Source: Escherichia coli
Lineage (GTDB): Bacteria; Pseudomonadota; Gammaproteobacteria; Enterobacterales; Enterobacteriaceae
NCBI RefSeq assembly: GCF_044647545.1
Contig: NZ_CP172818.1
DNA length: 64,000 bases
Reading direction: 5' to 3' (one strand)
Numbering within the stretch: the first letter of the stretch is position 1; each line of letters begins with the position of its first letter. Both the position numbers and the translations under genes were made by a program. The notes under the pieces were generated by a model, which saw nothing but the letters and a program-made list of their open reading frames with translations, made no database searches and was not told the DNA's origin. This document shows, piece after piece, positions 16,208 through 24,915 of the stretch.

Positions 16208-17566
16208 TTAATTCACCTCAGAAATCTCTTCCAGCGACACCTTCCGCGTTTCGATGCCAAAAATGGAGAGAACCAGCGCACAGAGCACTAACATGACACC
16301 AAGCACCATAAACACCGTGATCGACCCATAATGTGTTAATAATGCCGCAACGCCATAGGGCGTGAAGACTGCGACGATCCGTCCGACGGCATTAACGAAA
16401 CCCGAACCGCGCAAGCGTAAATGCGTTGGCCAAAGTTCCGGGATATAAACCGCCGACGCGAAGCACACATACATGTATAAAAAGAAGATCATCACCAGGC
16501 CATAGATTAAAATCGCCCACTCTGTAGTCTGAATTGAATAGATATAGCCTAACACAGCAATAATAATAAGTAAGGCAGAGCCAAATAATCGACGAGGAAA
16601 ATGATCAATAATTAATGCCGCAATAAATATCCCTACCGGAGCGCCAATCATAATAACAGCGGTCATTAATATTGATTTATCAACATCAATGCCGGAGTTA
16701 ACAAATATGGTCGGTATCCATACGGTGATGGTATAAAGCGAAATGTTCATTGCAATTAAAACAGTAATCGCGACTAATGTACGTCGTAACATTTCCCCTT
16801 TAAACAGGAGCCAGAAGGTACCCTTGATTACCTTAACCTTGCTGTTGCTCTGGTTCAAAGTAAGCGGGGGTAAACGAACACTCTTCTCTCTTTCAATTTG
16901 CTGCTCTACTTCACGAAGTTGGCTTTCTGCACCTGCGATTTGTCCTTTCCCCGCCAACCATCGAGGCGACTCAATAAAGTATTTACCTGAGAGAAACCAG
17001 GCTAACAGTATGCCAATACCACCCAGCAGAAACATTATCCGCCAACTAAAAAAAGCGATAACCACCACGCCTATCGCCGCAGACAACATGGGCGACCAGT
17101 TACCGACAAATGAGAGCCGCGCGGACCATTTTCCACGCACCGTCGCGGGGATAAACTCCGTAAATGAGGCATAGCCAACCATAATCAGCGCCCCCATTCC
17201 TGTTCCCATCAGGAAGCGAAAGAAGATGAGCCAGTACATATCAGGGACAAAAGCGGCCCCTGTTGCCGCAATACCGACGATGAGAAGATTTATGCGAAAC
17301 GCCCTGCGCCGCCCAAAGTAGTCACCAATAAACCCACCGGTAAGAGAGCCGATGAAATAACCAAACATTAATGCCGAGGTAAAGGCGGCATTGAGAAAAT
17401 TATTTGACCATCCATTGCTTACCAGCTTTGCTAAAACAACATTGCCTGAATAACTCAAAAAACCCGTTAATAACAGACTAAAGCTTATAATACCAAATAT
17501 ACGATAATGAAACCGGGCCAAAGGCAAGCGGTCCAGTCTTGCGCCAATTTGATCATATTGTTCCAT
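16208..17566 (-). CDS. ydjE: MFS sugar(-acid) transporter
   Basis: 452 aa, 12-TM MFS; paralog of ydjK. Confidence 0.9.
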   Translation of the reverse strand: MEQYDQIGARLDRLPLARFHYRIFGIISFSLLLTGFLSYSGNVVLAKLVSNGWSNNFLNAAFTSALMFGYFIGSLTGGFIGDYFGRRRAFRINLLIVGIAATGAAFVPDMYWLIFFRFLMGTGMGALIMVGYASFTEFIPATVRGKWSARLSFVGNWSPMLSAAIGVVVIAFFSWRIMFLLGGIGILLAWFLSGKYFIESPRWLAGKGQIAGAESQLREVEQQIEREKSVRLPPLTLNQSNSKVKVIKGTFWLLFKGEMLRRTLVAITVLIAMNISLYTITVWIPTIFVNSGIDVDKSILMTAVIMIGAPVGIFIAALIIDHFPRRLFGSALLIIIAVLGYIYSIQTTEWAILIYGLVMIFFLYMYVCFASAVYIPELWPTHLRLRGSGFVNAVGRIVAVFTPYGVAALLTHYGSITVFMVLGVMLVLCALVLSIFGIETRKVSLEEISEVN

Positions 17567-17682
17567 TAGGTGCCTCGGATTTGCTAAAAAGGTAGCAATT
17601 GCGGCAAATTCACTTGCCGCATCTTTATCATCATTTTATTTCCAGGCGCAGGAACAAATAATATTGACAACGTGTGCTTAAA

Positions 17683-18441
17683 TTACCACACCAGCTGGAT
17701 ATTATTGTCTTTGCAAAATGCTATCCACTCTGCACCCGGTGATTTATCAGTTATTATGTAATTAATATGACTAAAGTCAGCTAACTGGACAAAAGCTTTG
17801 CGATCAAACTTAGAGTGATCAACCAATAACGCAACTTCTGTCGCCTGACGGATCATTGTCTTTTTGATTTCAGCTTCCGCTTCGTTAGAGTCCAGCGCGC
17901 CGCTGTTAATATCAAGACCTTTACAACTCATTACCATGATATCGACATGGTAGCGGCTGATGATCTCTTTAGTAATTCTTCCTTGCAGGGAAAGTGTATT
18001 TTTGTTTAGTTCCCCACCCGTTGAAACGACTTTAATTTCTGACTGAGCCAGAACATGAATCGCTTCCGCCGAGTTGGTTAGCAACGTCAGGTCACTACGG
18101 TCCTGTAACAATTTGAGCAATTCCATTACGGTACTACTGGAATCGGCTGCCATGGTGGTTTTATTGTCGATAAAGGGTAATGCCTTGCGTGCAATAAGCT
18201 GCTTCTCTTCATAAAACGATGAAGCGCGCTTATAAAAATGGATATTCTCCGTCAACATCGCTGTATTTAAAACAGCACCACCATAGGTTCTGGTCAAAAA
18301 GCCTTCATCTTCCAGCTTCTCAAGATCGCGGCGAATGGTTTCTTCGGTTACCTGAAAAATCCCACTCAAATTTGAGACTGTCACCTTTTTATCGTTGGCA
18401 ACCATTTGCTTAATTGCCTGAATCCTGTCTTTTGCCGCCAC
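17683..18441 (-). CDS. ydjF: DeoR-family transcriptional regulator
   Basis: 252 aa; N-terminal HTH plus DeoR C-terminal sugar-binding domain. Confidence 0.9.
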   Translation of the reverse strand: MAAKDRIQAIKQMVANDKKVTVSNLSGIFQVTEETIRRDLEKLEDEGFLTRTYGGAVLNTAMLTENIHFYKRASSFYEEKQLIARKALPFIDNKTTMAADSSSTVMELLKLLQDRSDLTLLTNSAEAIHVLAQSEIKVVSTGGELNKNTLSLQGRITKEIISRYHVDIMVMSCKGLDINSGALDSNEAEAEIKKTMIRQATEVALLVDHSKFDRKAFVQLADFSHINYIITDKSPGAEWIAFCKDNNIQLVW

Positions 18442-18577
18442 GATTACACCCCTGTATCTTTTTACATCACATTAGCGCGATTATCGCATAATTGATGTTT
18501 ACTTTCAAAATAACCTGTTTGAATCACAGATTTTCATCACAGTTTTCACAGAAACAGAGGTGAATCGTGTTGAGTAT

Positions 18578-22420: not shown

Positions 22421-22436
22421 TTTGAATCCACCAGTA

Positions 22437-23815
22437 TTATTTATTGACTACTGCATCAATACTTAAACTTTCAACGGAGACACCTTTGGTTTCAATTCCA
22501 ATGGTGGCGATAGCAATTGCGACAATAATTGAAACCGCCCCCAGAAGAATAAAGACTCCCGTTACGCCATAACTACTGAGCAGCACTGCAACGGCATAAG
22601 GTGCGGCAATACCACTGATTCGCCCTACTGCATTCGCCAGACCGGAGCCACGTAATTTGGCCTCTGTCGGCCAGATCTCAGGGACATACACTGCCGAGGC
22701 ATAGCAAACGTACATATAGACGAAAGTAATCAGGAAGAAACCAATCAGCGTTATGAGCAACATACTGGTTTGCAGTGAATAGATATATCCGAGCACCGCA
22801 ATCAGGATTAATAGCCCCACCCCCATTGTTTTACGCGGAATTTTATCCATCACCAGCATGGCAATAAAAATACCAAATGGCGCGCCAAACATACTCATGG
22901 TATTTAAAACAATCGAGTCTTTTAAATTAATTCCCTGGGTCATGAATATCGTTGGCAACCAGTTAATTAGTGTGTACTGCACAACGTTCATGGCAATCAG
23001 CACACAAGAACCTAATATCACGCGTTTCAGTAATACTCCTGTTAGTAAGGCTGAATACGGCACCGCTTGTGGCGCTTTACCGTCATCAGCAATAACCACG
23101 GGCGGCAAAGGTTTTCCCGTCTGGCGTATGACGCCTTCTTCTATACTCCGCATGACTTTCTCGGCTTCCTGATACCGTCCGCGCGATTCCAGCCAGCGCG
23201 GGGATTCAGGAAAGTAGCGCCAGGCCAGCGCCGTAGCGATAAGCGACAATATTGCAGGGATAAGCAGTTGTACTCGCCAGTTCCACTCTGCACTAATCAG
23301 CGGCGTGAGTCCCATCGCAATCAATGAACAGAGCGGATATGACCAGTTGCCAATAAAAGAAACCCGACTGGACCACGTTCCGCGATTTCTACCGGGCATA
23401 TATTCGGTGAAACCAGCAAACAGCGTCACCAGTAAAGCTCCCAGCCCAACGCCCATCACAAAACGGCAGGCAATAAGGAAATCCATATTCGGTGAAAAGC
23501 ACCGACCACCATCGAGGCAATATGAATGGCCTCATAGAGGATGAACGCATTTCTGCGACCGGTTTTGTCACCGATGATGCCGCCAACCAGCGCACCGAGA
23601 AACATTCCGGCGGTCGTGATTGCTGAGAATGTGGCAGTGGTGGAATTATCTGTCCAGCCCAACTCTTTCAGCTGCGCGAGGATCAAGCCACCAACGGCAT
23701 TACTCCAGCAGACAAGCAAGCCAAACGCGACGATAGCAAACATTGACGAATGCCAGCGGCAATCCGGTAAGCGATCCAGCCGAGCACCACAATGCGGTTT
23801 TGTTATCTGTTCCAT
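22437..23815 (-). pseudogene. ydjK: MFS transporter interrupted by a -1 frameshift (two overlapping ORFs 23456..23815 and 22437..23486)
   Basis: Span is 1379 nt (one short of a multiple of 3); N-terminal 119 aa ORF and C-terminal 349 aa ORF are in different frames and together align colinearly with paralog YdjE; shift maps to A4 run at 23495-23498. Confidence 0.8.
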
Positions 23816-23841
23816 GCGATAACGTTCCTTCAGGAGAGTAG

Positions 23842-24915
23842 TTATTCATCAAAGTCGTAAGTCATGATCACTTTGATTGCGGTTTTATCGACCATCGCAT
23901 CAAACCCTTCGCGCCATTGCGACAGGCCGATACGATGCGTGATCATCGGTTTGACTTTGATAGCGCCGCTGGCTAATAGCCGGAGAGCGTTACGCCATGA
24001 GGTGGAGTCATAGGCCATATGCCCAATGATGCTTTTGTTCCAGGCGGTAATGTCATTAATCGAGAAATCAAGAGGTTTGAAGCCCATTCCAACGCGTACT
24101 ACTTCCCCATTCGGGCGGAGCATTTCGATGGCTTGTTTCAATGCGATATTGGCACCGGAGCATTCAATCACCAGCCCCAGATTGTCTTTGCCACAAATTT
24201 GCTGGCAGCGTGCCACCACATCTTCGGTAGAACCATTTACTACTGCCGTCGCACCCAGTTCTTTTGCAACCGGGAAGCGGACCGCCACATCTTCTTGTAG
24301 ACCAACGACGACGATATTTACCGCCCCCATAATCCGCGCCATTTGTACGGAGAACAGCCCGAGTGGGCCAGTACCGATGACGACCACATCCTGACCAGGG
24401 AGGAATTTCGATTGCTGCGCGATGGATTTGTAGGCATTACAGATAGGGTCAAGTACGGCTGCGTCCTCATAATCAACACCATCAGGGATTTCCCACAACG
24501 CATGACGATGAATTTTGAGAATTTCACCAGGAACCAGACAATATTTGGAAAAACCACCGCCCCAGGTATTGTTATCCAGACCAAGGTGATTTTCTGTACA
24601 ACACAGAAAATCACCTTGTTCACAGGCCGGACAAACGCCGCAGACGTGACCGCTGTTATCTGACACGACGCGTTGCCCCACTTTCCAGTCTTTGACTTTT
24701 TCACCAACCTGCGCAATACAACCTGCGAACTCATGGCCGCGGATAGAGTTAAACTCATCAGAACCGCTATCGACATTGTAGTGCTTCATGTCTGCGCCGC
24801 AGATTGCCGCGGCTTTAATTTCAATCACGACATCTTCCGGGCCACAAATGGGTTGTGGGACATCGATCATCTTGTAGCCGCCAAAGGCTTTGCCAAACCG
24901 AGCCAGTGCTTTCAT
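23842..24915 (-). CDS. ydjL: zinc-dependent alcohol/polyol dehydrogenase
   Basis: 357 aa; GHEFAG and cysteine-rich zinc motifs; paralog of ydjJ. Confidence 0.9.
   Translation of the reverse strand: MKALARFGKAFGGYKMIDVPQPICGPEDVVIEIKAAAICGADMKHYNVDSGSDEFNSIRGHEFAGCIAQVGEKVKDWKVGQRVVSDNSGHVCGVCPACEQGDFLCCTENHLGLDNNTWGGGFSKYCLVPGEILKIHRHALWEIPDGVDYEDAAVLDPICNAYKSIAQQSKFLPGQDVVVIGTGPLGLFSVQMARIMGAVNIVVVGLQEDVAVRFPVAKELGATAVVNGSTEDVVARCQQICGKDNLGLVIECSGANIALKQAIEMLRPNGEVVRVGMGFKPLDFSINDITAWNKSIIGHMAYDSTSWRNALRLLASGAIKVKPMITHRIGLSQWREGFDAMVDKTAIKVIMTYDFDE

Follow-up and report, generated by a model that had tools for sequence, protein, structure and literature searches.

A ydjK frameshift pseudogene in the ydjLKJIHGFE cluster of ST648-type Escherichia coli

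The ydjK gene carried by the Escherichia coli window examined here (a stretch of 64,000 nucleotides from contig NZ_CP172818.1) is an ordinary frameshift pseudogene, already annotated by RefSeq. Judging by its sequence and distribution, it is very probably a genuine and recent loss-of-function allele that has become fixed in an ST648-type lineage and has spread by drift or hitch-hiking. The gene belongs to the eight-gene ydjLKJIHGFE cluster on the minus strand of the window (16208-24915), and taken with the other lesions found in this cluster we regard the loss as a recent case of decay, specific to its lineage, in a set of genes that is conditionally dispensable.

Gene content and layout of the ydj cluster

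The genes were found in the order ydjL-K-J-I-H-G-F-E between the flanking genes yeaC and pncA. The cluster of strain K-12 (b1776-b1769) is alike in genes, order, strand, flanks and Pfam families, and its nucleotide identity with the window is 97-99%. It differs from the window in two respects, the -1 frameshift of ydjK in the latter and a YdjL of 357 aa as compared to 358 aa, in which KVN is replaced by NH. The Pfam scan recovered a complete set of enzyme and transporter families, namely a PfkB sugar kinase (ydjH, 19568-20515), a class II aldolase (ydjI, 20520-21356), two Zn-dependent MDR dehydrogenases (ydjJ, 21377-22420 and ydjL, 23842-24915), an aldo-keto reductase (ydjG, 18578-19558), a DeoR-family regulator with HTH_DeoR and DeoRC domains (ydjF, 17683-18441) and two MFS transporters, the intact YdjE of 452 aa (16208-17566) and the ydjK pseudogene (22437-23815). 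Open reading frames, RefSeq annotation and Pfam families all agreed with the gene content, order and minus-strand orientation given in a preliminary description of this DNA. The same description regarded the cluster as built from paralog pairs, which is correct for YdjE and YdjK, true paralogs that align over their full length with 44% identity, but not for YdjJ and YdjL, which share only 28% identity and are members of the same superfamily rather than a close pair.

The cluster of K-12, including the kinase YdjH and the aldolase YdjI, was reportedly characterised in vitro by Huddleston and Raushel in 2019. In its summary of Huddleston and Raushel 2019, PMC9602453 describes the best substrate as one without known natural abundance. 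The RefSeq names in K-12 are L-glycero-L-galacto-octuluronate kinase for YdjH and L-glycero-L-galacto-octuluronate 1-phosphate aldolase for YdjI, and YdjI of the window matched PDB 6OFU ('YdjI aldolase') with E = 2e-187. These names, the structure entry and the summary in PMC9602453 bear out the in vitro assignment to sugar acids given for this cluster in the preliminary description. Based on the K-12 annotation and that summary, activity on L-glycero-L-galacto-octuluronate or related uronates is predicted.

A promoter-like site (24999-24971) overlaps a 34-bp stem-loop with 15 pairs (25026-24993), the 32-nt palindromic core of which was identical across eight haplotypes, and this region of the minus strand (24971-25026) is a candidate promoter and operator of ydjLKJIHG. 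The genes ydjLKJIHG are spaced by 4-26 nt and have a single promoter-like site upstream, as would be expected of one operon, and ydjF has a promoter-like site of its own at 18508-18480.

The ydjK lesion and its predicted products

Alignment with K-12 revealed one 1-nt gap in ydjK, which measures 1379 nt as compared to 1380 nt in the intact gene, and this base is the sole length difference between the two. The missing base is one T of a T5 run located at codons 106-107 (gene position 321), and a T4 run is left at 23495-23498 on the minus strand. The site reads GCT TTT TCA in the ancestral D/F-type allele and GCT TTC TCA in K-12, the T5 run having originated by a synonymous TTC>TTT change at Phe106 in the phylogroup D/F clade. 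An ancestor with the K-12-like C restored on the window background was rejected, as it matched 0 genomes at 100%, and the ancestral state is accordingly T5 and not TTTCT. The silent change at Phe106 was the first step towards the present allele and the loss of one T the second, as replication slippage predicts.

The frame shifts where transmembrane helix 3 ends, and a TGA stop (23458-23456) closes it 12 codons later. The N-terminal fragment (119 aa, 23456-23815, minus strand) consists of 107 native residues, which retain TM1-TM3 along with the GDKTGRR loop motif, and an aberrant tail of 12 residues (HRIWISLLPAVL). The C-terminal fragment (349 aa, 22437-23486, minus strand) starts at the native Met111 and covers TM4 to TM12 without further stops. 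Both fragments were matched by Pfam MFS_1 and Sugar_tr, the profile being divided between them, with the MFS_1 alignment of the 349-aa fragment beginning at profile position 87 of 347. A functional MFS transporter would be encoded by one ORF of about 459 aa with 12 TM helices, whereas two ORFs in different frames were found here; the frame is not restored by any second change, the downstream ORF remaining shifted up to the native stop. With ydjE at full length, a frameshifted ydjK beside an intact ydjE, as first described, is what the window carries. The 119-aa fragment is probably non-functional and the 349-aa part would not be productively translated, with the consequence that YdjK transport would be lost. 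Rho-dependent polarity over the untranslated ydjK mRNA, about 1 kb in length, may moreover lower the expression of ydjJIHG.

It is conceivable that ydjK still works, either because a -1 ribosomal slip on GCU-UUU-C yields full-length YdjK or because the 119-aa and 349-aa parts act together as a split MFS protein. From its sequence, U-UUU-C would permit perfect re-pairing of tRNA-Phe in the P site in the -1 frame, regenerating A-F-S-P, and the C-terminal ORF is open and has a native Met start. Split halves of LacY can complement each other, which provides a precedent for the second version. However, the downstream fold (z = +0.38) offers no stimulatory RNA structure, the region 15400-26400 had no Rfam match and hence no Rfam frameshift element, and no Shine-Dalgarno sequence is recognisable upstream of Met111. 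The intact T5 is also the norm among 603 relatives, which gives no hint of an evolved recoding signal. At sites of this kind ribosomes usually slip spontaneously at a rate of no more than about 1%. By these features the site would permit slippage but is not a programmed ribosomal frameshift, and we hold a working ydjK to be highly improbable.

Distribution of the allele and nested lesions

The exact 44-mer across the frameshift was present in 59 of 5,426 complete genomes, obtained by many laboratories over many years from humans, dogs, birds, a dolphin, a pig and wastewater. Matches of 100% identity to the T5-intact 45-mer were found in 603 genomes of phylogroup D/F type, including IAI39, SMS-3-5, CE10 and 042, and the K-12-type allele at this site in 3,646 genomes. 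The window cluster is 100% identical to that of ST648-type genomes, the carrier IMT16316 being ST648. All four carrier records opened in RefSeq label ydjK as 'frameshifted', and at least 1,000 contigs in public collections (NCBI, JGI, ENA, Logan) encode the exact 119-aa product.

The preliminary description had named a sequencing error in ydjK as the finding that would overturn its reading. The site does sit in a mononucleotide run, and the nearby C7 run of yeaE varies between C6, C7 and C8 among assemblies, where artefacts or real hypervariability occur in single records. The ydjK run is, however, exactly T4 in all 59 carriers and T5 in the 603 relatives; the carriers form a coherent group with a ydjL allele nested inside it, and the product recurs across four repositories. 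With the RefSeq labels in agreement, the likelihood of a homopolymer sequencing or assembly artefact is practically negligible. As for yeaE, the window is intact at C7, and the 'frameshift' of this gene in some ST648 records seems to reflect noise or variation confined to individual assemblies.

The ydjL allele is an in-frame complex microindel (24587-24589, minus strand) that turns AAAGTAAAC into AATCAC and TEKVNLG into TEN-HLG, three residues past the structural-zinc Cys cluster (C92, C95, C98 and C106). It was present in 49 genomes, all of them within the 59 carriers of the ydjK frameshift, and one carrier, DSM 101139, has an IS1 between ydjI and ydjH, so that the three lesions are nested (59 > 49 > 1). 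The frameshift would accordingly be the oldest of them, with the microindel and the IS1 added later.

A one-unit indel in a mononucleotide run, shared by independent isolates that group coherently, is characteristic of lineage-specific pseudogenes derived by slippage. As in other slippage pseudogenes of short mononucleotide runs, a single-base loss (here from T5) is fixed in one clonal lineage, its sisters are intact and further lesions have followed in the operon; we see no essential difference, the prior synonymous change that made the run being a small extra in the window. Length change of a coding mononucleotide run is also a feature of phase-variable contingency loci. In these the tract is usually of at least 7 nt and on and off states are mixed, whereas ydjK went from 5 to 4 nt, is uniformly T4 and has no surface or virulence function. 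Given the short run and no mixed states among the 59 carriers, ydjK was rejected as a contingency locus.

Selection, dispensability and biological meaning

The near-identical strain HCM-27C-1 has the T5 run and an intact YdjK of 459 aa, with a single 1-nt gap between its ydjK and that of the window. Three SNPs separate it from the window, all private to HCM-27C-1, and the window lineage has acquired zero point substitutions in about 10 kb since their common ancestor. HCM-27C-1 as a revertant was ruled out by these private SNPs and by the widespread T5 of the 603 D/F genomes. Over this distance the window lineage has changed only by two coding indels, one in each of ydjL and ydjK, which open the operon. 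The ratio of two disruptive indels to zero SNPs is odd, but the numbers are tiny, and it could reflect selected loss, in which the inactivation of YdjK and then the change in YdjL would have been favoured in ST648, for example because import was harmful or the operon costly. The same T4 allele was also found on another haplotype, 27 SNPs away. A search for ydjK lesions in other isolates, proposed at the outset, returned independent nonsense, frameshift and IS alleles in addition to the genomes sharing the window allele. The recurrence of T4 fits a mutational hot spot, but it fits convergent selection too; a T5 run is by nature prone to slippage, and this alone can account for recurrence.

The wider pattern of loss was not specific to ydjK. 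The whole cluster was cleanly absent from 1,090 genomes (20%), and ydjE was disrupted by an IS in 245 genomes, with 12 of the 12 listed being O157:H7-type, and by IS1 in IAI39; the O157:H7-type and IAI39 insertions lie at most 10 bp apart, near nt 103-111 of ydjE. Gross disruption of ydjK, by comparison, was rare (about 59 of 4,327 genomes). As the lesions extend across ydjK, ydjL, ydjE and the entire cluster, decay affects more than a single transporter and more than a single section of the pathway. A stop at codon 9 of ydjJ in O157 TR01 was set aside, since several protein accessions are unique to this record and errors in it are possible.

The dN/dS comparison suggested in the preliminary description was computed by NG86 across six lineages and gave 0.02-0.09 for the eight ydj genes (0.05 for ydjK), comparable to the values of pncA (0.13) and msrB (0.02) in the flanks, although with zero substitutions in about 10 kb it is blind to any relaxation within the lineage of the window. 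All eight genes are under strong long-term purifying selection. The earlier proposal that selection may have been relaxed on part of the pathway stands as far as dispensability is concerned, given the nested lesions, the 1,090 absences, the IS insertions in ydjE and the other ydjK lesions, but not as a description of the long-term constraint on these genes. Strong purifying selection elsewhere also speaks against a general cost of the cluster, and with the rarity of gross ydjK disruption and the losses that strike ydjE or all eight genes, we consider it unlikely that the loss of YdjK was adaptive.

We favour instead a slippage-derived loss. It was probably tolerated because the cluster is of use only under certain conditions and because transport may be taken over by the intact paralog YdjE. 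The allele would then have spread by drift or hitch-hiking in the clonal expansion of ST648 and would not have been kept for a function of its own. The low dN/dS shows that the genes are of importance to the strains retaining them, and their loss may be costly in some niches.

The ydjE::IS alleles, that of the 245 O157:H7-type genomes and that of IAI39, resemble the window in that one of two paralogous transporters has been lost across a lineage with the enzyme genes intact; they differ in that the other paralog was struck, and by an insertion sequence instead of slippage. It is possible, though on balance doubtful, that YdjE and YdjK are redundant or alternative importers of the natural ydj substrate, of which lineages keep one, with the enzyme genes under purifying selection. 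If so, backgrounds with a single transporter together with the 20% of strains without the cluster would constitute a ready-made genetic panel for a substrate search.

Taken alone, the ydjK allele is of little importance: an accessory catabolic cluster has acquired another lineage-specific pseudogene. It does illustrate how a gene can be lost in two steps, a silent substitution that produces a run prone to slippage and, later, the slip that ruins the coding sequence. The pathway is known only from in vitro activity on a sugar acid without a known natural source, and the ydjK-null ST648-type strains, the 245 ydjE-null genomes, near-isogenic strains with an intact cluster such as HCM-27C-1 and the cluster-less strains form a natural panel that could help to identify its real substrate.

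Organization of the ydj cluster

In this Escherichia coli window the ORF listing, the Pfam scan and the RefSeq record of an identical genome consistently give eight minus-strand genes for the ydjLKJIHGFE cluster (16208-24915), and their content matched the preliminary description: two MFS transporters, ydjE (16208-17566) and the frameshifted ydjK (22437-23815), two Zn/MDR dehydrogenases, ydjJ (21377-22420) and ydjL (23842-24915), the DeoR regulator ydjF (17683-18441), the aldo-keto reductase ydjG (18578-19558), the PfkB kinase ydjH (19568-20515) and the class II aldolase ydjI (20520-21356). 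The cluster is the known system of K-12, and its 8.7-kb stretch was 100% identical to many complete ST648-type genomes, among which IMT16316 is documented as ST648 and another is named 'ST648'. It had also been described as built from paralog pairs, which holds for YdjE and YdjK (44% identity, end to end) but hardly for YdjJ and YdjL, which are merely 28% identical. The in vitro assignment to unusual sugar acids is borne out for the kinase and aldolase by the K-12 product names, PDB 6OFU and a published summary of their characterization on L-glycero-L-galacto-octuluronate (PMC9602453).

The spacing of 4-26 nt between genes from ydjL to ydjG and the single promoter-like site of this stretch, upstream of ydjL, suggest that ydjLKJIHG may form one operon; ydjF is preceded by a promoter-like site of its own. 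Upstream of ydjL, a 34-bp stem-loop (24993-25026, minus strand) built around the 32-nt palindromic core TGTAAAACGCAGATCATTATCTGTGTTTTACA extends over the -35 element of the sole promoter-like site before the gene, and a half CRP-like TGTGA is found directly upstream. The core does not differ by a single base among the window, K-12, HCM-27C-1 (a near-identical strain with intact ydjK), 042, IAI39, O157, Seattle 1946 and one metagenome haplotype. This palindrome is possibly an operator, with YdjF as a candidate ligand.

The ydjK frameshift and its descent in ST648-type genomes

Alignment of ydjK with that of K-12 gave a single gap, at gene position 321. Here K-12 reads GCT TTC TCA, HCM-27C-1 reads GCT TTT TCA, with a run of five T (T5) and an intact YdjK of 459 aa, and the window reads GCT TTT CA, with a run of four (T4, 23495-23498), which confirms the frameshift noted earlier. 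Among 5,426 complete genomes the K-12-type allele (TTTCT) was carried by 3,646, the intact T5 allele by 616 (603 at 100% identity), including IAI39, SMS-3-5, CE10 and 042, and the frameshifted T4 allele by 59. It follows that the T5 run arose by a silent TTC>TTT substitution within the D/F clade and that the ST648-type lineage later lost a single T from it. We regard ydjK as very probably a recent slippage-derived null allele of the ST648 lineage.

The 59 T4 carriers come from diverse laboratories and hosts, ydjK is marked 'frameshifted' in all four carrier records examined, and ORF calls giving the exact 119-aa product exist for at least 1,000 contigs across the four repositories NCBI, JGI, ENA and Logan. 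A sequencing artefact in the homopolymer, which would have overturned the earlier claim, is ruled out by these diverse sources, flags and contigs, and the allele is real. A noise-like pattern was seen in a C7 run of yeaE (28749-28755, in the minus-strand gene 28368-29222), which is intact in the window and M25631H but has one C more (C8) in NZ_CP008697 and one fewer (C6) in CLSC36, two records in which yeaE bears the 'frameshifted' flag; this variation, whether sequencing noise in the homopolymer or genuine hypervariability, is confined to single assemblies, in contrast to T4.

The truncated product keeps 107 residues of native YdjK, with TM1-3 and the GDKTGRR loop, before it runs into the tail HRIWISLLPAVL. 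The remaining 349 codons are open from the native Met111 but in a different frame, and no Shine-Dalgarno sequence was visible before Met111 of this ORF. One protein cluster at 90% identity groups the 349-aa YdjK fragment with YdjL dehydrogenases of 358 aa, an odd grouping that may come from fused ORF calls. A ribosomal slip of -1 could in mechanistic terms leave some YdjK function, as U-UUU-C would regenerate A-F-S-P, but this reading is unsupported and very improbable: a downstream structure was not found (z = +0.38) and neither was an Rfam element. From the sequence we infer loss of YdjK function, polarity on ydjJIHG and redundancy with YdjE.

An in-frame complex microindel in ydjL (24587-24589, AAAGTAAAC to AATCAC) changes TEKVNLG to TEN-HLG (KVN to NH) directly after the structural-zinc Cys cluster. 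It was present in 49 genomes, every one within the 59 T4 carriers, while CLSC36 and M25631H have the ydjK frameshift and a full-length ydjL; one ST648-type genome, DSM 101139, has an IS1 between ydjI and ydjH (L003 4838-5535) on top of both lesions. The lesions arose in the sequence ydjK frameshift, ydjL microindel and, in one strain, IS1. The window and HCM-27C-1 differ by three SNPs, all private to HCM-27C-1, and therefore the lineage leading to the window has changed in ~10 kb only by the two coding indels in ydjK and ydjL. When the first 50 kb were compared with NZ_CP008697.1 position by position, register was lost from base 3 at equal lengths, and therefore indel differences lie outside the ydj region; the window probably stems from another ST648-type genome than this record.

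The T4 frameshift was also found in gut-metagenome and Logan contigs (L013 3001-4379, L014 and L015) on a haplotype that differs from the window at 27 SNPs in 6.4 kb and has a full-length ydjL, which points to either recurrent slippage or short-tract recombination. The renewed appearance of an identical allele, and two indels against no SNPs on the window's line, would favour adaptive loss of ydjK/ydjL function; however, lesions affect either transporter as well as the cluster in its entirety, and a run of five T is by nature prone to slippage, and we consider adaptive loss improbable. The slippage-derived T4 allele would instead have been carried along by ST648 clonal expansion.

Loss of ydj genes and selection across the species

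The search for ydjK lesions in other isolates, proposed earlier, recovered independent lesions: IS1 insertions or large truncations, a remnant of 23% of the gene, a nonsense allele E138* and two further frameshift alleles, whose reading turns aberrant near residues 93 and 130. The other transporter gene, ydjE, is broken at nt 103 by an IS3-family element in 245 genomes, the 12 listed being of O157:H7 type (O157:H7 TR01, L010 1215-2630), and in IAI39 by IS1 about 8 bp from that site (L009 14062-14825), such that two different elements sit at nearly one spot. In TR01, ydjJ has a stop at codon 9 (L010 7458-7484) and is re-annotated from a later start; as a number of protein accessions around it are unique to this record, the stop may be an assembly error.

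The cluster was present in 4,335 of the 5,426 genomes, and in 1,090 the pncA-yeaC gap is only ~160 bp with no trace of it. The boundaries of this polymorphism fall at 16116-16207 and 24916-25284 of the window, the empty site being L004 2161-2320. The REP-like element that follows pncA is retained there, and a further ~90 bp match neither cluster flank, so a simple recent deletion does not account for the empty site. A published survey found prevalence to be phylogroup-dependent, e.g. ~30% in B1 (PMC9602453).

The proposed cross-strain check of dN/dS (Nei-Gojobori; window, K-12, 042, IAI39, O157 and Seattle 1946 lineages) gave purifying values for each of the eight ydj genes (0.02-0.09; ydjK 0.05), alongside 0.13 and 0.02 for the flanking pncA and msrB. 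The cluster is under purifying selection wherever it is retained. Relaxed selection on part of the pathway, as suggested in the preliminary description, is only partly supported: over the long term these values show constraint, but the absences and lesions show that the species as a whole can dispense with the cluster.

The pseudogene itself is known, being already flagged in RefSeq; what is new, all of it minor, is the silent change behind the slippery run, the nesting of successive lesions and, in O157:H7-type genomes, the reciprocal loss of ydjE. The loss of ydjK would have been tolerated as the pathway may be only conditionally useful and YdjE perhaps redundant.
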